NCBI GenBank assembly: GCA_964466945.1
Contig: CAYXPA010000006.1
Span: forward strand, 189 to 64,188
From: an uncultured Verrucomicrobiota bacterium
GTDB taxonomy: Bacteria > Verrucomicrobiota > Verrucomicrobiia > Limisphaerales > J093
DNA length: 64,000 bases
Direction of reading: 5' to 3'
Shown here: positions 474-49,035 of the stretch, in pieces
Numbering within the stretch: the first letter of the stretch is position 1
How the letters are laid out: each line of letters begins with the position of its first letter
Program-made: the position numbers and the translations under genes
The notes under the pieces: model-generated
The model's database searches: none
Told to the model about the DNA's origin: nothing
Seen by the model: the letters and a program-made list of their open reading frames with translations, nothing else

Positions 474-515
474 CAGGCATCCGGCGTCTGGCATCTGGCA
501 TCCGGTATCCGAACC
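474..515 (+). repeat. 7-bp tandem repeat tract (about 6 units, CCGGYAT-like)
   Basis: Read directly: CAGGCAT CCGGCGT CTGGCAT CTGGCAT CCGGTAT CCGAACC. Confidence 0.8.
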
Positions 516-610
516 CGCCCCACAGCGTCGGCAAGCCGGCCTGCCTGCGCCAAGCGAAGCACGGCAGGCAGGCGCACTCTAGCGAGGTAGGGCGCCGCTG
601 CGCCGGCGCC

Positions 611-743
611 GTAGCGCAGGTTTCCAACCTGCCGTACCGCCTACTTCCAGTCGGCAGACCGCCGGAATACCGCAGCGCCACGGAACACGCCCGCTTCTGC
701 GGGTGGGAAACCCGCGATCCGGCAGACCACAGGTCCGCGCTAC
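611..743 (+). repeat. 133-bp REPIN-like unit, copy 1
   Basis: Inverted termini GTAGCGCAG...CTGCGCTAC with internal hairpins. It differs from copy 2 at 10 of 133 positions by manual alignment. Confidence 0.9.
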
Positions 744-782
744 GCTGCCGGGCGGGCCGCCTGCCGCTCCCGACTCCCGCCG

Positions 783-859
783 CCGGTATCCGATATCCGC
801 CATCCGGCATCCGGCCTATGGCATCCGGTATCCGGTATCCGGTATCCGGCCTCCGTCAT
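783..859 (+). repeat. 7-bp tandem repeat tract (11 units)
   Basis: CCGGTAT CCGATAT CCGCCAT CCGGCAT CCGGCCT ATGGCAT CCGGTAT CCGGTAT CCGGTAT CCGGCCT CCGTCAT, in exact 7-bp phase. Confidence 0.9.
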
Positions 860-1036
860 CCCCCCTTCTCACTCCTCCCTCCTCGCTTCTCACTCCTGAC
901 TGGGCAGGGCTCCGCTGCGCCGGCGCCCTACCCCGGCCGCGCCGCAGCGTGGCCGTACTGTGCGCCCAGCCTATGGGGTGCGGTACCTTGCCGCCGCGAG
1001 GAGGGAAGCCCGCGACCCAGGGCGGCGCGCCGTCGG

Positions 1037-7996: not shown

Positions 7997-8074
7997 TGGT
8001 CGGGGCGGTGAGATTCGAACTCACGACCTCTTGTACCCGAAACAAGCGCGCTAGCCAGGCTACGCTACGCCCCG
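7997..8074 (-). tRNA. tRNA-Pro (anticodon CGG)
   Basis: Reverse complement is CGGGGCG...CTTGT-TTCGGGT-ACAAG...GTGAG-TTCGAAT-CTCAC-CGCCCCG-A-CCA. Full cloverleaf with encoded CCA. Confidence 0.9.
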
Positions 8075-11437: not shown

Positions 11438-12451
11438 ATGCCCGTCGAGTTCAAAGACTACTACGCCATCCTGGGCGTCCCGCGCGACGCCTCGGAGGAG
11501 GACATCAAGAAAGCCTTCCGCAAACTCGCCCGCCAGTACCACCCGGACGTGGCCCGCGACAAAAAGGCCGCCGAGGAGAAGTTCAAGGAGATCAACGAGG
11601 CCTACGAGGTCCTGAGCGACCCGGCCAAACGCAAAAAGTACGACACCCTCGGCGCCCAATGGCACGCCGGCGCGGGCTTCGAGCCGCCCCCCGGCTGGGA
11701 GTCGGCCCGCGGCGCGCGCTGGGCCAGCCCGGACGGTACACAGGCCTTCGAGTTCCACTTCGGCGGCACCGGCTTCAGCGACTTCTTCGAGCAGTTCTTT
11801 GGCCGGGGCGGACTCGATGACCTCCTGCGCCAGGCCCGGGCGGGCCGGGGCGCGGGGGCGCCGCCGGAAGACTTCGAGGAAACCGCCGCCGCAGGCCGGC
11901 GCGGGCAGGACATCGAGGGCGACCTCCTGGTCACACTCGAAGAGGCCTTCCACGGGGCGGTGCGCAGCATCTCCTTGCAGAAAACCGACCCCCGCACCGG
12001 CCGCACCGAGACGCACACGTTCAAAGTGCGCATCCCCGCCGGCGTGCAGGACGGCCAAACCATCCGCGTGCCCGGCAAGGGTGGGGAGGGCTATGGCGGC
12101 GGACCACCCGGCGACCTTTACCTGCGCGTGCGCCTGGCCGCTCACCCGTGGTTCCGCGCCCGCGGCAGCGACCTTTACTACGACCTGGACCTCGCCCCAT
12201 GGGAGGCGGTTTTGGGGGCCACGGTCGAAATCCCCACCCTCGACGGCAAGGTCACCGTGCGCATCCCGCCCGGCACCTCCAGCGGCCGGCAACTCCGTGT
12301 GCGGGGTCGCGGCCTGCCGCGTGGCGCCGGTGAGCGGGGCGACCTGTACGTGGTGGTAAACCTCGAGGTGCCGGACCACCTCAGCGCCGAGGAACGGCAC
12401 CTTTGGGAACAACTGCGCCGCGTCTCCCGCTTCAATCCGCGACAGACCTGA
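11438..12451 (+). CDS. cbpA: DnaJ-class co-chaperone without zinc finger (CbpA-like)
   Basis: J domain (DYYAILGV...HPD) plus DnaJ C-terminal domains, with no CxxCxGxG repeats. Confidence 0.85.
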
Positions 12452-12480
12452 ACCCCGCGCGCTCCCCGCCGAGTTACCCC

Positions 12481-13194
12481 ATGCTCCCCCTGCGCGACGA
12501 CATTCCCAGCCGGCATTTCCCGGTGGTCACGCTCACCCTCATTGCGGTGAACGGGCTGGTGTTTTTCTGGGAACTGAGCCTGGGGCCGCGGCTGGCGGAG
12601 GTGCTGTTGCACCTGGGCATCTTGCCGGTGCGGTACACTGTGGGCGAGGTGGCGGCGCTCTTTAGCTGGCCCGAACAGGCCCTGCCGTTTTTCACCTCGA
12701 TGTTCCTGCACGGCGGCTGGACGCATCTGTTGGGCAACATGTGGACGCTCTGGGTCTTTGGCGACAACGTCGAGGACCGCCTGGGGCGGCGGCGCTTCCT
12801 GGTCTTCTACCTGGTGGGCGGGGTGGCGGCGGCCTGGCTCCACATCGTCACCAATCCGACCTCCGCCGTGCCCACCATCGGCGCCAGCGGCGCCATCGCC
12901 GCGGTCATGGGCGGCTACTTCCGACTCTATCCCCACGCCCGCGTCGCCATGCTCATCCCGCCGTTTTTCCTGGGCCCGTACTTTGTGGTCCCGGCGGTGG
13001 TCTTTCTGGGCTGGTGGTTCATCCTCCAGTTCTTCAACGGCACGCTCAGTCTGCTGGCCCGGCCGGACGCGGCGGGCGGCATCGCCTGGTGGGCGCACAT
13101 TGGCGGGTTCGTGTTCGGGGCCCTGCTCTGCAGCGTGGTCAAGGTCCGCCACTTCTACCGCCGCCACCACGAGGAGGAAGAAGGCCTCTGGTGA
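12481..13194 (+). CDS. rhomboid family intramembrane serine protease
   Basis: GASGAI catalytic Ser motif, WAHIGG His motif and six predicted TM segments. ATG at 12481. Confidence 0.85.
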   Translation: MLPLRDDIPSRHFPVVTLTLIAVNGLVFFWELSLGPRLAEVLLHLGILPVRYTVGEVAALFSWPEQALPFFTSMFLHGGWTHLLGNMWTLWVFGDNVEDRLGRRRFLVFYLVGGVAAAWLHIVTNPTSAVPTIGASGAIAAVMGGYFRLYPHARVAMLIPPFFLGPYFVVPAVVFLGWWFILQFFNGTLSLLARPDAAGGIAWWAHIGGFVFGALLCSVVKVRHFYRRHHEEEEGLW

Positions 13195-13311
13195 CCCGCC
13201 GGGACCCGCCGCCCGGCGGCCTCTTCGCGGCTTCGCGCGCCGGCCCCGCGCACGCTCGCCGCCTGTGGCATTGCGCCCCGGTCCGTTCGCGGTTAAACCC
13301 TGCCCCGTCAC

Positions 13312-14439: not shown

Positions 14440-15464
14440 ACCGCGCCCGCTTCGAAACCCTCACCGCCCGTTACCCCGCCCTGCGCCTCGCCGTGGTGGG
14501 CGATTTCTGCCTGGACCGCTACCTCGAAATAGACCCCGCGCGCGCCGAGACCTCGCTCGAGACCGGCTTGCCCGTGTACAACGTCGTCAACGTCCGCAGC
14601 CAGCCCGGCGCAGCCGGCACCATCCTCAACAACCTGGCCGCCCTGGGCGCGGCCACGCTCTACCCGGTGGGCTTCTGCGGCGAAGACGGCGAAGGCTACG
14701 AACTTCAGCGCGCCCTGCGCGCCCGCCCCGGCGTGCGGCTGGACCACTTCCTGGCCACGCCCCGGCGCCGCACCTTCACCTACTGCAAACCGCTGGTACT
14801 CGAACCCGGTCGCCCACCCCGCGAACTCAACCGCCTGGACTCCAAAAACTGGTCCCCCACGCCGCCCGAGGTCGAAGACCGCCTCCGCGACTCCGTGCGC
14901 GCCCTGGCCCCCGGCGTGGACGCCCTCATCGTCCTGGACCAGGTGGACCTGCCCGACACCGGCGTCGTTACCCGGCGCGTGCTTGAGACCCTCGACGAAA
15001 TCTCCCGCGCCCACCCGGACAAGTCGATCATTGCCGACAGCCGCCGCGGCCTGCGCGACTTCCCGCCCCTGACCTTCAAAATGAACGGCCGCGAGCTGGG
15101 CGCCCTCACCGGCGCCGGACCCCTGCGCGAAATCGAGCCGGTGCGCCGCCACGCCCGCGAACTGGCCGCGCGCAACGGCAAACCCGTCTTCGTCACCCTG
15201 GCCGAACAGGGCATCGTGGGCGCCGCGCCGGACGGCCGGGTCGAGCACGTCCCCGCCCTCCCCGTGCGGGGGGAAATTGACATCGTGGGCGCCGGGGACG
15301 CCGTGACGGCCAACCTCGCCTGCGCCCTGACCGCCGGCGCCTCGCTGCGCGAAGCCATGGAACTGGCCATGGCCGCCGCCTCCCACGTCATCCATCAGCT
15401 CGGCACCACGGGCACCGCCTCGGTGGCCGACCTCCGCGCCCTCGCCGTCGGCCCGGCCTCGTAG
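14436..15464 (+). CDS. PfkB-family carbohydrate kinase (RfaE domain I / ribokinase-like)
   Basis: DIVGAGDAVTANLACAL anion-hole motif. ATG at 14436 overlaps the upstream stop (ATGA). In frame in ORF 12741..15464. Confidence 0.8.
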   Translation: MNRARFETLTARYPALRLAVVGDFCLDRYLEIDPARAETSLETGLPVYNVVNVRSQPGAAGTILNNLAALGAATLYPVGFCGEDGEGYELQRALRARPGVRLDHFLATPRRRTFTYCKPLVLEPGRPPRELNRLDSKNWSPTPPEVEDRLRDSVRALAPGVDALIVLDQVDLPDTGVVTRRVLETLDEISRAHPDKSIIADSRRGLRDFPPLTFKMNGRELGALTGAGPLREIEPVRRHARELAARNGKPVFVTLAEQGIVGAAPDGRVEHVPALPVRGEIDIVGAGDAVTANLACALTAGASLREAMELAMAAASHVIHQLGTTGTASVADLRALAVGPAS

Positions 15465-15593
15465 CGCAGGTTTCCAACCTGCTGTATCGCCGACTTCCAG
15501 TCGGCAGACCGCCGGAATACAGCAGCGCCGCGGAACACGCCCGCATCTGCGGGTTGGAAACCCGCGATCCGGCAGACCGGAGGTCTGCGCTAC
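15461..15593 (+). repeat. 133-bp REPIN-like unit, copy 2
   Basis: GTAGCGCAGGTTTCCAACCTGC...GCAGACCGGAGGTCTGCGCTAC. Its GTAG head contains the TAG stop of the upstream CDS. Confidence 0.9.
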
Positions 15594-15618
15594 GTTGCCG
15601 ACGCGCGCCCCCGTAGCG

Positions 15619-15674
15619 CCGGCCTCCGGCCTCCGGCCTCCGGTATCCTGTATCCGGCATCCGGCATCCGGCAT
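15619..15674 (+). repeat. 7-bp tandem repeat tract (8 units)
   Basis: CCGGCCT x3, CCGGTAT, CCTGTAT, CCGGCAT x3. Confidence 0.9.
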
Positions 15675-15878
15675 CCCCCTTCTCACTCCTCGCTTCTCAC
15701 TTCTGATTCGGTAGGGCTCCGCTGCGCCGGCGCCGCTCGCCCGGCCGCGCCGCAGCGCGGCCCTACCGACAGCGCCGGCCAGCCGGCCTGCCTGCGCCAT
15801 GCGAAGCGCGGCAGGCAGGCGCACTCCATACGCTCCGCGACTGTGCGGGCGCTCGACTCGCGCGCCAGCGTTTGGAGT

Positions 15879-15904
15879 GCGGCAGCTTGCTGCCGCTTTC
15901 TTGC
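15879..15904 (+). terminator. terminator-like hairpin module of the repeat (GCGGCAG-CTTG-CTGCCGC + TTTCTTGC)
   Basis: 7-bp GC stem, tetraloop and T-rich tail. This is the only intrinsic-terminator-like structure downstream of the 9438-15464 gene string. Confidence 0.35.
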
Positions 15905-17271: not shown

Positions 17272-17359
17272 GCCGGTGTGGCGAAATGGCAGACGCAAGG
17301 GACTTAAAATCCCTTGGCCAGTATTGGCCGTGTGGGTTCGAGTCCCACCACCGGCACCA
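17272..17359 (+). tRNA. tRNA-Leu (anticodon UAA)
   Basis: GCCGGTG acceptor stem, anticodon loop CTTAAAA, long variable arm, GTGGG-TTCGAGT-CCCAC T arm and CACCGGC-A-CCA. Confidence 0.9.
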
Positions 17360-23505: not shown

Positions 23506-25734
23506 ATGTTGGCCGCCCAAAATCGGGGGCTGTTATCGGGCTTGGCCCGGGCCTTTGGCAAGCCTGCTCGCCGCCCGGCGGCCGCGCCTCCGACGGGGGC
23601 CGGGCGGCCACGGGTAAGCGCGGCCAGGGCCGCACTTTATTGCAGTCTGCTCCTGCTCCTGGCGGGCTGCGGCGTCCAGGGGCGCGACCACTTGCTGCTG
23701 GGCCAAAGGCTGCTCCAAGAAGGCCGCCCGGCCGAGGCCATCGAGCCGCTCCAGGCCGCGATTCAAGCCCTGCAAACCAACGCCCCCGCCGCCGCCCAGG
23801 CGTGGAACTACCTCGGCCTGGCCTACCATCGGGCGGGGCAAGCCGCCGAGGCCGCCCGGGCTTACAAGGCGGCGCTGGACCGCGACTTCAACCTCTTCAC
23901 CGCCCGCTACAACCTGGGCGCGCTGTTCTTCGAGCAGGGCAATTACACCGCCTCCATCAACGAGCTGACCACCTACACCGCCCACCAGCCCAAAGACCCG
24001 GCCGGCTGGCTCTTGCTCGGCCGGGCGCAACTGCGCGCCGGCTTGCTCGACGCCGCCGACCGCAACCTGCTCCAGGCCCTGCGCCTGAACCCCGGCCTGC
24101 AGCAGCAAGCCGAAGCCCTCAACGCCCTCGGCCTGGGCCAGGTCCAACGCCGCCGGGCGCGCGAGGCCTTCCAGTATTTCGAGGCCGCCCTGAACCGCGT
24201 CACCAACTACCCGCCCGCGCTGCTCAACCAGGCCATCCTTTCCCAGCAGGTGCGCGACTACCGTTACGCCCTCCAAAAGTACGCCGCTTACCTCGACGTG
24301 GCCGGACAGGCTGCCAACGCCGAAACCATCCGCAGCCTCACCAACCGTCTGAGCGAACAAATTGCCCTGGCGCTCAAGCCCGCTCCGGCGCCGGCCGCCC
24401 CGCCGCCCGCGACCAACCTGCTCGCCAATCTCCGCACCGCGACGCCGCCCGCCGCCACTCCAGCCGCGCCGACCCCGAGCCAGGTCCGCACCACGGCGCC
24501 TCCGGCCAAACCATCCGTCACCGCGCCCCCGGTGATCGCTCAAACTTCCCCACCACCGGCCACGGTCGCCACCACCGCGCCGCCACCAGCCGTTGCCGCC
24601 GCCAAACCACCCGTCCAAACGCCGTCGGAGACAAAACCCGCGCCGCCGCCGGTCGCGGCGACCACGCCGCGCGCCGCACCACCCGTCGCCAGCGAGACCG
24701 CAAAAACTCAACAGGCCACGCCCGGTCCCGCGCCAACGCCCGCCGCCACCACCCCCAAGCCGGAAACCCCGCCTGCGCCCGTCGTGGAAACGGTCGAGCT
24801 CGCGGCCGAACCGGAAATCAAACCCGCCGTGGACGTGGCGCTCGCGCCCGCCGCCACCGCGGCCCGGCCGCCCGCCACCAACACCACTCCATCTGCTGCG
24901 CCATCACCCGCGCCAGCGGCCAGTCCCGCCCCGGCTTCGCCTGCTGCCACGCCGGCTCCGTCCGCTGCGACCGCTGGAAGCGCGGCAAAAGAATCCGAAC
25001 CACCCCGCAAACGCTCTCTCATCGCCCGGCTCAACCCGCTCAATCTCATCCGCGGCGAAGGCGACCCGGATAAAATCCGCGAACGCGAGGCCAAAAAAGC
25101 TGCCGAGCAGGCCCGCAAAGCGGAAAAAGAGGCGGCCAAAAAACGGACCACCCCCGTCGAACGCAAGACCGCGGCCGCCGCGCCAGCCCCGGAGCCCGAG
25201 CCGCCGCGCCCCGTTTTCCCCCGGTACAAGTACGCAACGCCGGCACCGCCCGCGCCCGGCAACCGCGCGGAAGCCGAACGCTTGGTGGCCGAAGGCGTGA
25301 CCGCGCATCGCGCCGGGCGACTGGGCGAAGCGTTGGCCGCTTACCAGCGCGCCGCACGCGCCGACCCGGCGCATTTCCCGGCCCACTTCAACCTGGCCGT
25401 GGCCGCGTTCGAGCAACGCGACTGGCCGCGCGCCCTGGCCGCTTACGAGACCGCGCTGGCCCTGGACCCTGCCCATGCCGATGCCCGCTACGGCTTCGCC
25501 CTCTCCCTCGAACGCGCCGGTTACCCCCTCGACGCCGCGGCCGAGTTGGAAAAAATCCTTGCCCGCGACCCGCGCCACGTCGAAGCGCACCTGGCCCTGG
25601 CCAACCTCTGCGCCACGACGCTGGCCGACCGCGACCGCGCGCGGGAGCACTACCTCAAAGTGCTCCAACTCCAGCCCAACCACCCCCAGGCCGGGCTGAT
25701 CAAACGCTGGCTGGGCCCGGCCTGGCGGCCATGA
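23506..25734 (+). CDS. TPR-repeat lipoprotein with long Pro/Ala/Thr-rich linker
   Basis: Lipobox LLLLAGC, with N- and C-terminal TPR blocks flanking ~300 aa of low-complexity PA-rich sequence. ATG at 23506; the ORF-track start at 23488 is GTG. Confidence 0.75.
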   Translation: MLAAQNRGLLSGLARAFGKPARRPAAAPPTGAGRPRVSAARAALYCSLLLLLAGCGVQGRDHLLLGQRLLQEGRPAEAIEPLQAAIQALQTNAPAAAQAWNYLGLAYHRAGQAAEAARAYKAALDRDFNLFTARYNLGALFFEQGNYTASINELTTYTAHQPKDPAGWLLLGRAQLRAGLLDAADRNLLQALRLNPGLQQQAEALNALGLGQVQRRRAREAFQYFEAALNRVTNYPPALLNQAILSQQVRDYRYALQKYAAYLDVAGQAANAETIRSLTNRLSEQIALALKPAPAPAAPPPATNLLANLRTATPPAATPAAPTPSQVRTTAPPAKPSVTAPPVIAQTSPPPATVATTAPPPAVAAAKPPVQTPSETKPAPPPVAATTPRAAPPVASETAKTQQATPGPAPTPAATTPKPETPPAPVVETVELAAEPEIKPAVDVALAPAATAARPPATNTTPSAAPSPAPAASPAPASPAATPAPSAATAGSAAKESEPPRKRSLIARLNPLNLIRGEGDPDKIREREAKKAAEQARKAEKEAAKKRTTPVERKTAAAAPAPEPEPPRPVFPRYKYATPAPPAPGNRAEAERLVAEGVTAHRAGRLGEALAAYQRAARADPAHFPAHFNLAVAAFEQRDWPRALAAYETALALDPAHADARYGFALSLERAGYPLDAAAELEKILARDPRHVEAHLALANLCATTLADRDRAREHYLKVLQLQPNHPQAGLIKRWLGPAWRP

Positions 25735-25943
25735 AAGCGAGGAGTGAGAAGTGAGTCCGGAAGCCGGACGCCGCAGCCGACACGGAGCGTGTGGAGTGCG
25801 CCTGCCCGCTGCGCTTCGCTGGGCGCGGCAGGCCGGCTGGCCGGCGCTGTCGGCAGGGCCGCGCTGCGGCGCGGCCGGGGGGGACGGCACCGGCGCAGCG
25901 GCGCCCTGCCCAGTCAGGAGTGAGAAGCGGGGAGTGAGGAGTG

Positions 25944-25999
25944 GGATGCCGGATGCCGGATACCGGATGCCAGATACCAGAGGCCGGATGTCGGATGCG
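25944..25999 (-). repeat. 7-bp tandem repeat tract (8 units, GGATRCC orientation)
   Basis: GGATGCC GGATGCC GGATACC GGATGCC AGATACC AGAGGCC GGATGTC GGATGCG. Confidence 0.9.
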
Positions 26000-26027
26000 G
26001 GCATTACGGGGGCGGCGTGTCGCCTGC

Positions 26028-26160
26028 GTAGCGCAGACCTCCGGTCTGCCGTATCGCGGGTTTCCAACCCGCAGATGCGGGCGTGTTCCGTAGCGCTGCG
26101 GTATTCCGGCGGTCTGCCAACTGGAAGTCGGCGGTACGGCAGGTTGGAAACCTGCGCTAC
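26028..26160 (-). repeat. 133-bp REPIN-like unit, copy 3
   Basis: Reverse complement aligns full length to copies 1 and 2. Confidence 0.9.
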
Positions 26161-26455
26161 GAGGCCGGGCCGACGGCGAGGGCGCCGTCGGCGGCACGCG
26201 CGGACGCGTGCGCTCCCCCAAATCAAGGTCGCCGGCAAGTTGCCGCCTGCCTGCCGGCAGGCAGGCCGACCACGGCCTGGTGGGCCGTTCCAGCCGGGAC
26301 AAAGAGCGGCAGCAAGCTGCCGCACTCCATGCGCTGGCGCGCGAGTCGAGCGTCCGGCCCGTTGCAGAGCGTATGGAGTGCGCCTGCCCGCAGCGCTTCG
26401 CTCGGCGCAGCGGCGCCCTGCCCAGTCAGGAGTGAGAAGCGGGAAGTGAGAAGTG

Positions 26456-26532
26456 GGATGCCGGATGCCGGATACCGGATGCCAGATACCGGATACCAGA
26501 TGCCAGAGGCCGGATGTCGGATGCCGGATGCG
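26456..26532 (-). repeat. 7-bp tandem repeat tract (11 units)
   Basis: Same tract as 25944-25999 but three units longer. Confidence 0.9.
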
Positions 26533-26566
26533 GGAGTCGGGAGCGGCAGGCGGCTCGCCCGGCCGC

Positions 26567-26699
26567 GTAGCGCAGACCTCTGGTCTGTCGTATCGCGGGT
26601 TTCCAACCCGCCGGTGCGGGCGTATTCCGCGGCGCTGCGGTATTCCGGCGGTCTGCCGACTGGCAGTCGGCGGTACGGCAGGTTGGAAACCTACGCTAC
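26567..26699 (-). repeat. 133-bp REPIN-like unit, copy 4
   Basis: Reverse complement aligns full length to the other copies. Loop variants are TCT, GGC and CCGG. Confidence 0.9.
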
Positions 26700-26999
26700 C
26701 GGGCCGACGGCGCGGCGCCGTCGGCGGCACGCGCGGGGCGCGTGCGCTCCCCGGAACAAGTCGCCGGCAAGTTGCTGCCGGCTCGCCGGCAGGCAGGCCG
26801 ACCACGGCCTGGCCGTTCCACCCAGAGGGAAAGCAGTGGCAGACGGCCGCTGGTGGACACCGTCGGGCGGCGAGCGTTGATTGGGCCGAAATGGGCTTGG
26901 TTGGCCGGGCGCCGCACGGCGGGTGCGGGCTGTGTATGGGGTCCTCCGCAGGGCGGGGTGAAAAATCGGGGACGAACCAAAATTTTTCGCAAATAGCAG

Positions 27000-46099: not shown

Positions 46100-47398
46100 T
46101 CAGCGCCCCACGCTCTTGTACACCCAGCCCAGACGCTCCATTTCGCGCGGGTCAAACAGATTGCGGCCGTCGAACAGGATCGGGTGGGTCATGGTGCGGC
46201 GCGCGCGATCGAGGTCCAGCTCCTTGAATTCCGGCCACTCGGTGGCAATGACCAGGGCGTCGCAGCCCTCGGCCACTGCGTCGCGCTCGGGCACGTACTC
46301 GACCTGCGGCCCGGGCGGCAACACGGCCTTGGCCTTCTCCATCGCGCGGGGGTCGTACACGCGCAGCCGGGCGCCTTCGCGCAGGAGCCGCTGACAAACC
46401 TCGATGGCGGGGGACATCCGCACGTCGTCGGTGTTTTGCTTGAAGGCCAGCCCCAGCACGCCGATGCGCTTGTCCTTGAGCACCCAGAGCGTGTCGGTGA
46501 TTTTGCGCAGGAACCGGTCCATCTGCTGGGTGTTGATCAACTGCACCTGCTTCAGCAGCCCGAAGTCGTAGCCCAGTTGCTCGGCGATCTTGATGAAAGC
46601 GCTCAGGTCCTTGGGAAAGCAACTGCCGCCGAAGCCGATGCCCGCGTCCAGAAAGCGGCGGCCGATGCGCTTGTCCAGCCCGATGCCGTTGGCCACTTCC
46701 TGCACGTCCGCGCCCGAGGCCTCGCAGATGACCGAGATGGCGTTGATGTACGAGATTTTCAGCGCCAGGAACGAGTTGGCCGCGTGCTTGATCAGCTCGG
46801 CCGAGTTGATGTCCGTGACCAGGATGGGCGCATCAATCGGCGCGTAAATCTCCCGCATCGCCGGCACCGGCCGCGGGCTGGCGGCGCCAATCACGATCCG
46901 GTCCGGGTGCATGAAGTCCTCGACCGCGAAGCCCTCGCGTAAAAATTCCGGGTTGCTCACCACGTCGAACTCGACCCGGGCCCGGTTGTAGCGCCGGATG
47001 GTCTCGGCCACCTTCTCGCCGGTCTTCACCGGCACCGTGCTCTTGTCCACCACGATCTTGTACGAGGTGAGGCATGCCGCGATTTCCCGGGCCACGCCCT
47101 CGATGTAGCTCAGGTCCACGCTCCCGTCCGGCAACGGCGGCGTGGGCACGGCGATGAAGACCACGTCCGACTGCGCGACCCCCTCCGCCACGCTGTCGGT
47201 GAACCGCAACCGCCCCGCGGCCACGTTGCGCGGCACCAGCTCCTCGAGCCCCGGCTCGTAAATCGGGATGCCGCCGCCCTGGAGCAGGCGCACCTTTTCC
47301 ACGTTGTTGTCCACGCAGATGACCCGGTGGCCGATCTCCGCAAAGCAGGTCCCGGTCACCAAACCCACGTAGCCGGTTCCAATGATGGCGATGTTCAT
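46100..47398 (-). CDS. ugd: UDP-glucose 6-dehydrogenase
   Basis: MNIAIIGTGYVGLVTG Rossmann motif and full UDPGDH domains. Confidence 0.9.
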   Translation of the reverse strand: MNIAIIGTGYVGLVTGTCFAEIGHRVICVDNNVEKVRLLQGGGIPIYEPGLEELVPRNVAAGRLRFTDSVAEGVAQSDVVFIAVPTPPLPDGSVDLSYIEGVAREIAACLTSYKIVVDKSTVPVKTGEKVAETIRRYNRARVEFDVVSNPEFLREGFAVEDFMHPDRIVIGAASPRPVPAMREIYAPIDAPILVTDINSAELIKHAANSFLALKISYINAISVICEASGADVQEVANGIGLDKRIGRRFLDAGIGFGGSCFPKDLSAFIKIAEQLGYDFGLLKQVQLINTQQMDRFLRKITDTLWVLKDKRIGVLGLAFKQNTDDVRMSPAIEVCQRLLREGARLRVYDPRAMEKAKAVLPPGPQVEYVPERDAVAEGCDALVIATEWPEFKELDLDRARRTMTHPILFDGRNLFDPREMERLGWVYKSVGR

Positions 47399-47470
47399 GC
47401 GAGCCGAGAAAAAGTCATTCCGCTGCCCGGGGCCAGTCCGCGCTGCTCGGAGTCGGCACCAACCGCGCCG

Positions 47471-48268
47471 CTAGGGCGTGGGGGCGGGAGCGCCCGGCGG
47501 GGCGGCGGCGTTGGTGGAGGGGCCGGGCGTGGCGGCGGGTGCAGAGGCCGCCGACGGCGCACCCGCGCCGACTGGAGTGATGACGGGCGGGTTGGCCGGC
47601 GCCGCCGCGGGGGCCAACTCCGGGTGCTGTCGCAGCAGCGTGTCCCGTTTGACCGAGGCCTCCATCGCGGCGCGCCCCGCGGTGCGGTCTGCCTGCAGGC
47701 TGTCATAGATTTTCAGCGCCTCGGCGAATTGTCCGCGCGCCTCGTGCAACGCCGCCAGGGCCAGCCGCGCGCGGCCCGAGACGGGGTCGTCCGGGTACTT
47801 GGCAATCACCTGCTGGTAAGCGGCCATGGCGGCCTCCACCTTGTCCTCGGCATCCAGGCACGTGGCCGCACCCAGCGCCGCCATCGGCGCCAGCAACCCG
47901 GTGTCGTCCCGGGCCACGACCTCCTCGAAACGGGCCCGCGCCTCCGCGTACTTGCCGGCCTGGTACAACTCCCCGGCGGCCAGCAGCAAGGCCCGCACGG
48001 CTGCTTGGGAGGAGCCGTATCGGGCGGCCAGTTGCACAAACGCGTCGTGCCCGGGGCCGGACTTTTCCTCCGCCCGGCCGGCCGGGGTCAGCGCCAGCAG
48101 CGCGTGATTGGCCTGCAATTCATTCTGCCCGCGAAACCAGAAAAAGACGTAGCCGCCCACGATCAGGAGCAACACCCCCACCGCGCCCAGGACCAACTGC
48201 CGGCGGTGCAACTCCGCCCAGGCCCAGGCTTCGTAAATCCACGTGGATTCCTGCTTTTCCGGCTGCAT
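47471..48268 (-). CDS. YfgM-like membrane-anchored TPR protein with PA-rich C-terminal tail
   Basis: N-terminal TM followed by a TPR-like domain. ATG (MQPEKQ) at 48268. Confidence 0.65.
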   Translation of the reverse strand: MQPEKQESTWIYEAWAWAELHRRQLVLGAVGVLLLIVGGYVFFWFRGQNELQANHALLALTPAGRAEEKSGPGHDAFVQLAARYGSSQAAVRALLLAAGELYQAGKYAEARARFEEVVARDDTGLLAPMAALGAATCLDAEDKVEAAMAAYQQVIAKYPDDPVSGRARLALAALHEARGQFAEALKIYDSLQADRTAGRAAMEASVKRDTLLRQHPELAPAAAPANPPVITPVGAGAPSAASAPAATPGPSTNAAAPPGAPAPTP

Positions 48269-48473
48269 AGAAAGCGCGGATTCTTTGAGACGGGGTTGGA
48301 AACGCAAGAAGGAAATCCCGCGCTTAAGTGTGCTCGGCGCATTTCGAGCCATCGGCGTGGGCCGGGAGAAGGTCCCGGTTTGGGAAGCGCACGCGTCCCT
48401 GCGTGCTGCCGTGCTCAACTGTGGCGCATTGGTGCGCGTGTTGCCGTCGGCGCCACCGCTGTTGGCCTTGCCT

Positions 48474-48589
48474 CGTAGCGCAGGTTTCCAACCTGCTGTA
48501 TCGCCGACTTCCAGTCGGCCACGGCAGGGGGTGAGCGGAGCTCCGGCGGGTTGAAAACCCGCGGTACAGCAGACCAGAGGTCTGCGCTA
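48474..48589 (+). repeat. 116-bp variant of the REPIN-like unit, copy 5
   Basis: Same GTAGCGCAGGTTTCCAACCTGC and GCAGACCAGAGGTCTGCGCTAC ends, but the centre is replaced or shortened. Confidence 0.85.
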
Positions 48590-48621
48590 CTCCGTCGAGC
48601 GATTCGCCAGCCGCTCCCGAC

Positions 48622-48656
48622 TTCTGCATCCGGCATCCAGCATCCGGCATCCGACC
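48622..48656 (+). repeat. 7-bp tandem repeat tract (5 units)
   Basis: TCTGCAT CCGGCAT CCAGCAT CCGGCAT CCGACCT. Confidence 0.8.
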
Positions 48657-48778
48657 TCGCTCCACAGCGCCGGCGAGCCGGCGCACTCCAGACGCTTCGC
48701 GAGGTAGGTCGCCGCTGCGCCGGCGCCGCCCATCCGGCCGGGACGCAGCCCGGCCCTACCGCGCGCCGGCGCATGGAG

Positions 48779-48801
48779 TGCGGCAGCTTGCTGCCGCTTT
48801 T
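48779..48801 (+). terminator. terminator-like hairpin module of the repeat (GCGGCAG-CTTG-CTGCCGC + T5)
   Basis: Same module as 15879-15904. Here it sits upstream of rlmI, so a terminator function is doubtful. Confidence 0.25.
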
Positions 48802-49035
48802 TGCCCGGGTGGAACGGCCAACTGGGCCGTGGTCGGCCTGCCTACCGTCAGGCAGGCGGTAACCTGCCGCCGAACCGCCCCGCGCGGTGCACGCGTCCCG
48901 CGCAAAGGAGACGCCCGAGCGCACCATGATTCCCGGGACCATTCCCCGTTTCCAGACTCCCCAAGGACTCGTCGGCCTCGGCGCGGCAATTGGTTCGACG
49001 CCCGCCCGCCGCCGCGCCATGCTGGTTGGGTGCCG

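Follow-up and report, generated by a model that had tools for sequence, protein, structure and literature searches.

What kind of element is the patchwork of repeated sequences that separates genes in a 64,000-nucleotide (64-kb) stretch of contig CAYXPA010000006.1, from an uncultured Verrucomicrobiota bacterium (hereafter, the window)? A first-pass annotation had described positions 15461-15904 as a mosaic in which a 133-nt unit is embedded among six other modules: a CCGGYAT heptamer tract (i), a polypyrimidine module (ii), a GC-rich module (iii), a long hairpin (iv), a terminator-like hairpin (v), and a near-perfect palindrome (vi). It had likened the whole to the bacterial interspersed mosaic elements (BIMEs) of Escherichia coli, in which repetitive extragenic palindromes (REPs) are combined with accessory motifs. 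We find that the 133-nt unit consists of two GTAG-tagged hairpin repeats joined head to head, i.e., a REP doublet forming hairpin (REPIN), and we consider it probable that the region represents a REP/REPIN cluster, corresponding in Verrucomicrobiota to a BIME of E. coli.

Five copies of the mosaic are present at four loci of the window (Table 1), and a sixth lies just beyond its left edge. JGI contig Ga0394876_0001773 matches the window at 100% identity, and the sixth copy was found at 12018-12476 of a sibling contig, L247, which runs past the left edge. When the module consensus sequences were compared with the window by blast, matches had E-values of 1e-8 to 1e-65, all of them inside the four loci and none elsewhere in the 64 kb. 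Repetition at these sites is far beyond chance. In an alignment of the five copies (A1), mean column identity is 57%, with long invariant runs; the longest pairwise repeat between mosaics measures 264 nt (86% identity), and 15426-15612 forms an inverted repeat with 26009-26195 (I2, 91%). A GTAG followed by a perfect hairpin occurs at 15 sites in the window, 11 of which fall within mosaics; in simulated sequence the expectation was 1.3 and the maximum 4. Compared with shuffled sequences, 15461-15904 folds better on either strand (z = -6.0 and -5.4). All six modules named in the first-pass annotation do exist. Its further claim that the same modules recur at all four loci holds for the unit, the heptamers, and the GC-rich module, but not for the polypyrimidine module, which is absent from locus 4, or for palindrome vi, which is absent from loci 1 and 2.

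The unit, which we call family A, is a GTAG...CTAC inverted doublet of 133 nt with four 7-bp hairpins (H1 to H4), whose loops are TCC, TCC, GGA, and GGA, respectively. It reads GTAGCGC-AGGTT TCC AACCT-GCYGTAYC-GCCGACT TCC AGTCGGC-[centre]-GCGGGTT GGA AACCCGC-GATACRGC-AGACC GGA GGTCT-GCGCTAC and has, besides the hairpins, two further stems, an outer one (GTAG...CTAC) and a linker stem of 6 bp. The segment GTAG-C-GCAGGTT-TCC-AACCTGC and its inverted partner are present in every unit, and GTAG is conserved at 94% or more in 71 aligned units. The two halves, 5' and 3', are conserved around a centre that varies both in length (~10-80 nt) and in sequence (alignment A2). The termini are GTAGCGC and GCGCTAC, and no flanking duplication was seen.

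The palindromy of the unit is a property of its DNA. In the 71 aligned units, 97.1% of the cells are paired, against 21-44% in slid controls, and the stems are perfect Watson-Crick helices, 96-100% paired per helix. The search pattern predetermined hairpin H1 and part of the linker, which are therefore uninformative for pairing, while H2, H3, and H4 were free to vary. Thirteen pairs show two-sided changes (178 cells), and a one-sided change was seen in 17 cells only; since two-sided changes dominate, G-U pairs are nearly absent, which is what one would expect of DNA hairpins that have to form on either strand. Moreover, a covariance model of the unit (R1) scores the two strands almost equally (e.g., 132 vs 108 bits). 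The near absence of G-U pairs and the near-equal strand scores indicate that this palindromy has been selected at the level of DNA and not as RNA structure.

Family A is widespread and multicopy. A scan of one genome per species found the 24-nt core of the unit at 114 loci or more. The 80 loci listed come from ~30 assemblies, nearly all of them Verrucomicrobiota metagenome-assembled genomes (MAGs), together with one Limisphaera isolate, and at least 24 of these 80 are in a single MAG, MFD03726.bin.2.4. In that MAG each unit (L001, L009, L014, L022, and other loci) is bordered by conserved sequence of its own, with CGGAACCGGGCTACCGAGGCTGC to the left and ..GGCGAAACCCGTGAAATATCCGGGCTAA to the right, and is therefore nested there in a different, lineage-specific repeat. 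Elsewhere, two units stand in direct tandem, 23 nt apart, the second with an 18-nt longer centre (L110, 5872-6178). Five units are located in the window and one just outside it. The spacer specific to the units of the window, GGCAGACCGCCGGAATACNGCAGCGC, had 0 matches in a metagenome scan, and therefore no further copies of the window's lineage were sampled.

In three unrelated contigs from related bacteria (L118, L053, and L250), a gene for a REP-associated tyrosine transposase (RAYT), or a remnant of one, lies 0-10 nt from a family A unit. In L118 the RayT gene (NCBIfam NF047646, 82 bits; Pfam PF01797, Y1_Tnp) is flanked on both sides, by a unit upstream (133 bits) and by a unit that overlaps its stop codon (61 bits), the TAG stop lying in the GTAG of the latter. 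In L053, from a Limisphaera sp., the open reading frame (ORF) of a RAYT remnant ends in the GTAG of a full unit; its C terminus matches NF047646 (E 7.5e-11, profile positions 80-146 of 146), and its database relatives are all RayT/PF01797 proteins. In L250 a RayT gene is followed, 10 nt downstream, by a unit scoring 78 bits. This adjacency is the REPtron arrangement, which has been described for E. coli and other bacteria (PMC3333891, PMC3733652). The RayT frame of L118 (230-985) is split by an in-frame TAG at 575-577 into ORFs of 115 and 135 aa, which could reflect a pseudogene, a sequencing error, or read-through, and its N-terminal part has no family match. Around a more distant RayT, in L115-117, the flanking inverted hairpin pair is a different one, GTGG-GGCAGGTC-CCC-GACCTGCC. 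A tblastn search for RAYTs, with an E. coli RayT query, gave only the L053 lead.

These features match those of REPIN-RAYT systems, or REPtrons (Nunvar 2010, Bertels and Rainey 2011, Ton-Hoang 2012, Di Nocera 2013), in five respects: 1) a GTAG 5' of a hairpin, 2) two inverted repeats, GTAG outermost, around a spacer of 20-100 nt, 3) multiple and mostly extragenic copies, 4) a RAYT gene flanked, and overlapped at its 3' end, by the repeat (L118, L053, and L250), and 5) persistence of the family across related species. The unit differs from a typical REPIN in having two hairpins per half, four in all, instead of one per half, and a 6-bp linker stem that joins its halves, with which it could fold as stacked junctions. 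It also differs in its loops, fixed as TCC/GGA, and in its perfect stems, which lack the mismatch needed in E. coli; that mismatch, however, is a trait of the E. coli family and not of all GTAG families (PMC3733652). GTAG REPs have already been reported in the Planctomycetes-Verrucomicrobia-Chlamydiae (PVC) superphylum, Opitutus terrae being "highly enriched" in them (PMC3733652). The exact sequences of the mosaic were not found in the literature searched or in Rfam.

What, then, are the other modules? The GC-rich module (family B) is a second GTAG...CTAC inverted doublet, GTAG-GGCTCCG..CGGCGCC ... GGCCGCGC-CGCA-GCGCGGCC-CTAC, and like the unit it is bounded at either end by GTAG plus a perfect hairpin. 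Family C unites the flank of hairpin iv, a middle segment, and hairpin v in one inverted doublet, with AAAGCGCC-GGCAAGCC-GGCGCACTCCAAACGCTTCGCG as its left arm and CGCGAAGCGTTTGGAGTGCG-hairpin-CGCTTT as its right arm. The core of the left arm is found in at least 120 metagenome stretches, a small GCGCC...GGCGC hairpin is present in 122 of 143 copies, and many copies have an inverted partner. No description of this doublet was found in Rfam or in the literature searched, and family C seems to be a separate repeat family, as yet undescribed. In metagenome contigs L127-L246, C copies (GGCGCACTCCAAACGCTTCGCG plus the adjacent small hairpin) often form inverted pairs and are sometimes in tandem. 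Hairpin iv and palindrome vi, which share the arms CCTGCCTGC/GCAGGCAGG, are one and the same small hairpin, family D, which invades other repeats. At loci 1, 2, and 3a it splits the small hairpin of C, as an insert of 33 nt, and in L029 a D-like hairpin interrupts hairpin H2 of a unit. The remaining part is a microsatellite: CCGGCAT tracts with a period of 7 were detected by Tandem Repeats Finder at six sites, in 4-11 copies.

This anatomy changes how two features of the mosaics are to be understood. First, the relative order of the modules, previously thought to be conserved, is not fully so: the GC-rich module comes after the flank of hairpin iv at 522-610 and 48667-48761 and before it at loci 2 and 3a. 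The position of B relative to C thus sets loci 2 and 3a apart from loci 1 and 4, which fits the expectation for independent insertion. Second, the apparent clean deletion of hairpin iv near 48680 is the uninterrupted form of C. Since this form is found at locus 4 (48667-48700), in the sixth copy, and in most metagenome copies, the "deletion" is the absence of an insertion.

Outside the window, families A and C are largely independent. Among the matches listed, C is present in one of the 114 loci found through A, and A-like units are present in about nine of the 100 loci found through C. Several of the "accessory modules" are independent repeat families nested in one another, and not linkers. 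The modules recur beyond the window, in other genomes and metagenome contigs, and their combinations there include C followed by a half unit and then B (L049), a unit followed by hairpin c2 and then heptamers (L004), and the left arm of C followed by B, as at locus 4 (L127). Tandem amplification has occurred as well. At locus 3 there are two copies, with direct repeats (D4, D5, D17, and D20) spaced 512-582 nt apart; the period of 0.53 kb corresponds to the heptamers-polypyrimidine-B-C block plus a unit with its a/b/c/e flanks. In L206, heptamer-polypyrimidine-B-C repeats are arrayed in 3-4 copies with a period of ~230 nt, and a unit is found at the edge of the array only, none inside.

The comparison with E. 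coli BIMEs in the first-pass annotation, which had allowed for a different module set, is supported by the two GTAG doublets (A and B), the RAYT adjacency in three contigs, and the tandem amplification. Like BIMEs, the mosaics 1) combine REPs in alternating orientation with a limited set of motifs, in combinations that differ by locus, 2) show tandem amplification and variable copy number, and 3) lie between genes, often at 3' ends. They differ from BIMEs in their size (~0.5 kb, against roughly 0.1 kb per BIME repeat), in sharing no sequence similarity with them, and in having as accessory parts not short linkers but largely autonomous families (B, C, and D) and a microsatellite. Since blastn against 5,426 E. 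coli genomes gave no match and there is no homology to the enterobacterial y, z1, and z2 REPs, our claim is that the region probably works like a BIME, not that it is a member of the BIME family. The intergenic mosaics of Neisseria (dRS3/CGTC-1 REPs) are likewise large intergenic clusters in which REPs are interleaved with other families, but they belong to the CGTC REP superfamily, which has no known dedicated transposase, and involve another host phylum and other partner repeats (PMC3733652).

How might such mosaics arise? In E. coli, TnpA-REP requires GTAG plus REP; it cleaves at C|T, both in inverted REPs and in linkers over 400 nt distant, and recombines these sites (PMC3333891). The authors of that work proposed that BIMEs owe their variability and amplification to this activity, and tandem amplification is also seen in BIME-2 elements (PMC3333891). 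Other descriptions include clusters in which REPs are repeated together with the DNA beside them, and REPs that sit inside other palindromes (PMC3733652). By analogy, we infer that a RAYT, a HUH Y1 enzyme, would be encoded elsewhere in this genome, where it would bind GTAG plus hairpin on single-stranded DNA and would cut and rejoin at the unit and in adjoining sequence, thereby mobilising the unit. Its cleavage in linkers would also drive the shuffling or amplification of neighbouring modules, leaving mosaics with variable ends. The mosaic would have been built by nested insertion and recombination between repeat families, the other parts being the second GTAG doublet (B), the widespread inverted doublet (C), the inserting hairpin of ~30 nt (D), and the heptamer microsatellite with its polypyrimidine tract. 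Once assembled, it would have been copied as blocks, locally in tandem and also between loci.

Block copying is suggested by the junction series unit-spacer-heptamers-polypyrimidine-B, which is common to the five copies at 81-95% identity. The same junctions would suit a different origin, in which the whole mosaic of 0.3-0.5 kb is one non-autonomous transposon similar to a miniature inverted-repeat transposable element (MITE), its modules being internal segments with deletions. We think this unlikely because the outer boundaries differ at every locus (15426/15904, 25735/26830, and 48434/48903), with no common termini and no target duplications seen. In addition, B and D are placed differently among the copies, the block in L206 is repeated without the unit, and A and C occur independently elsewhere.

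Several observations count against a REP/REPIN cluster shaped by a RAYT. There is no RAYT gene in the 64-kb window or in ~9 kb beyond it, and the link for this genome therefore comes from repeat homology only; the units adjacent to RAYT genes have other central spacers than those of the window. E. coli TnpA-REP needs a stem mismatch, which the perfect stems of the unit do not have. GTAG is missing from families C and D and from the heptamer/polypyrimidine tract, and no linked transposase was found for them, a link between C and a transposase not having been examined. No target-site duplication, excision footprint, or presence/absence polymorphism at orthologous sites could be shown. Finally, nothing indicates recent mobility, since the copies in the window have diverged by 5-27%, depending on the module, and are therefore not recent.

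Table 1. Extent and module composition of the mosaic copies in the window
Locus	Feature	Position	Strand	Remark
1	Mosaic	476-1000	+	
1	Heptamers	476-511	+	
1	Family C left arm with D	522-579	+	
1	Left half of family B	587-610	+	
1	Family A unit	611-743	+	
1	Spacer	744-782	+	
1	Heptamers	783-861	+	
1	Polypyrimidine module	862-901	+	
1	Family B	902-958	+	
1	Degenerate family C right arm	968-1000	+	
2	Mosaic	15426-15904	+	
2	c2 right arm, GCCGACGGCG...CGCCGTCGGC hairpin module	15426-15460	+	30-nt left flank identical to locus 3a
2	Family A unit, GTAG to CTAC	15461-15593	+	Covariance model R1, 132 bits, E 4e-31
2	CCGGCAT heptamer tract, 8.3 copies	15619-15676	+	Tandem Repeats Finder
2	Polypyrimidine module (F)	15675-15709	+	
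2	Family B (GC-rich module)	15711-15766	+	GTAG-plus-hairpin census, blast
2	Family C left arm (ACAGCGCCGG..CCGGCGCACTCCATACGCTCCGCG)	15769-15839	+	Holds 33-nt family D hairpin at 15787-15819
2	Family C spacer (j) and right arm (AGCGTTTGGAGTGC + GCGGCAGCTTGCTGCCGC hairpin + TTT)	15840-15899	+	
3a	Mosaic	25735-26303	-	Starts directly after TPR gene stop codon
3a	Polypyrimidine fragment	25735-25753	-	
3a	Family C left arm with degenerate D	25785-25850	-	
3a	Family B	25853-25911	-	
3a	Polypyrimidine module	25912-25945	-	
3a	Heptamers	25944-25998	-	
3a	Family A unit	26028-26160	-	
3a	Hairpins c	26163-26218	-	
3a	Palindrome vi (D arms)	26245-26266	-	
3a	Module a	26268-26298	-	
3b	Mosaic	26304-26830	-	Tandem copy of 3a
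3b	Family C right arm	26305-26330	-	
3b	Family C spacer (j)	26332-26352	-	
3b	Right part of family C left arm/D	26367-26410	-	
3b	Left half of family B	26400-26423	-	Joined directly to right part of C left arm/D
3b	Polypyrimidine module	26424-26457	-	
3b	Heptamers	26456-26535	-	
3b	Spacer	26530-26566	-	
3b	Family A unit	26567-26699	-	
3b	Hairpins c	26699-26752	-	
3b	Palindrome variant	26760-26799	-	
4	Mosaic	48434-48903	+	
4	Family A unit	48475-48590	+	Central part replaced
4	Heptamers	48626-48653	+	
4	Uninterrupted family C left arm	48667-48700	+	
4	Family B	48703-48761	+	
4	Family C right arm	48768-48800	+	
4	Module a and palindrome variant	48803-48870	+	
4	GCACGCG hairpin	~48880-48903	+	

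Locus 2 lies between a PfkB-family gene ending at 15464, whose product has a Pfam PfkB domain at residues 597-891 of 907, and a convergent recA. The similarity to locus 3a extends back to 15426, and the 3' end of the PfkB-family gene is therefore repeat-derived: the right arm of c2 now forms its last 12 codons, and its TAG (15462-15464) lies within the GTAG of the unit. The earlier description of the loci as strictly intergenic fails here. Locus 3 is located between a tetratricopeptide repeat (TPR) gene and rpsL, the polypyrimidine module directly following the TGA stop of the former (25732-25734); the observation that two loci begin at or immediately after a stop codon is thus correct for both. 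Locus 1 is bounded by the stop codon of lpxD (1037) and by a gene of 79 aa (332-93); both genes are on the minus strand, and the mosaic is antisense to the lpxD operon. Locus 4 abuts the start of a TPR_21 gene on the minus strand (47471-48418). A plus-strand ORF (47327-48478) that ends in the TAG of the locus 4 unit was rejected as spurious, the real gene there being TPR_21, on the opposite strand. A spurious ORF of 232 aa also spans the mosaic of locus 3 (25751-26449, plus strand) and is a gene in the JGI annotation (P0130, "hypothetical protein"); against a protein database it matched itself and one other protein, weakly, and has no real homologues.

Two tRNA genes were detected in the window (Rfam RF00005), at 8000-8074 on the minus strand (61.5 bits) and at 17272-17356 on the plus strand (61.6 bits), the second just upstream of recA. 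Relatives of the window's RecA (90-96% identity) showed no synteny downstream of recA; the closest (96%; L119, 9095-9329) has a different downstream region, on a contig that ends 234 nt after recA, without a mosaic. Insertion sequences (ISs) were seen next to some copies. In L247 (12356-12500) the unit of the sixth copy is broken at 12476, in the H1 loop (AGGTTGGA|GGCACGG), by an IS that carries an rve-type integrase gene (12498-13241). The window's own contig stops ~70 nt into that IS, and L248 ends at 12681. In L206 (1-340), a unit without hairpin H1 directly follows the TAG at the end of an ORF whose C terminus shows weak, sub-threshold similarity to a transposase of the IS110 family (Transposase_20, E 8e-4). 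IS110-family elements are known to target REPs.

Could the modules instead act at the level of RNA, as 3' untranslated region stabilisers, terminators, or a selected structured noncoding RNA? The strong folding of both strands would suit such a role, and so would hairpin v, which matches the terminator consensus at three loci and which at locus 2 (15879-15896) sits downstream of the PfkB-family gene and shares its direction. REPs have been reported elsewhere to affect mRNA stability and termination (PMC3733652). At locus 3, however, both flanking genes are on the other strand from the terminator-like hairpin, the mosaic of locus 1 is antisense, as noted above, and no same-strand upstream gene was identified at locus 4. 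Since the orientation of hairpin v to the flanking genes is inconsistent, terminator function is not its primary role. The scarcity of G-U pairs and the similar scores of the two strands also argue against selection on RNA, and a search of the window with Rfam 15, at gathering or permissive threshold, returned the two tRNAs only, with nothing but noise (E >=0.4) in the mosaic region. An origin in RNA function is therefore improbable, and any effect of the mosaic on transcripts would be a consequence of its presence.

It is also conceivable, if very doubtful, that the unit and the GGA-rich strand of the mosaic are functional elements domesticated by the host and not merely selfish repeats. The GGA-rich features in question are the (CCGGAUG)n heptamers, the GGAGUGAGAAG tracts, and the two GGA-loop hairpins of each unit. 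A possible role would be that of a sponge or landing pad for a CsrA-type RNA-binding protein, another that of a cruciform-forming DNA site for chromosome organisation. Domestication, if true, would explain why an exact 24-mer and fixed TCC/GGA loops have been kept across ~30 species. As to the first role, a tblastn search with an E. coli CsrA query gave no match in the 1.5 Mb of sequence searched, which is not decisive against it.

That the modules are fragments of a degraded IS, prophage, or plasmid end is extremely unlikely, for although ISs do adjoin some copies (the rve-integrase element in L247 and the weak IS110-type match that abuts the partial unit in L206), these elements interrupt units and do not continue them, REPs being known IS targets (PMC3733652), the mosaics hold no coding remnant, the 232-aa ORF included, and the modules match nothing in 72,556 plasmid records, 50,697 phage records, or the E. 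coli genomes.

We therefore return to the REP/REPIN cluster as the probable nature of the region. As far as we know, work on REP, BIME, and REPIN-RAYT systems has dealt almost exclusively with Proteobacteria. What is unusual here is the presence of four hairpins per unit, the perfect stems, the fixed TCC/GGA loops, and the way in which at least four repeat families are nested. A RAYT-linked, four-hairpin GTAG element common to many Verrucomicrobiota, and nested in this genome with three or more other repeat families, extends the phenomenon to another phylum. The mosaics also offer a natural test case for how REP clusters grow by nested insertion and tandem amplification, and at one locus a mosaic donates a stop codon and a C terminus to a gene. 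There are consequences for annotation and assembly as well, since a mosaic was called as a 232-aa "hypothetical protein" and the source contig ends at the IS that cuts the sixth copy. Finally, the very widespread doublet of family C is a lead worth following.

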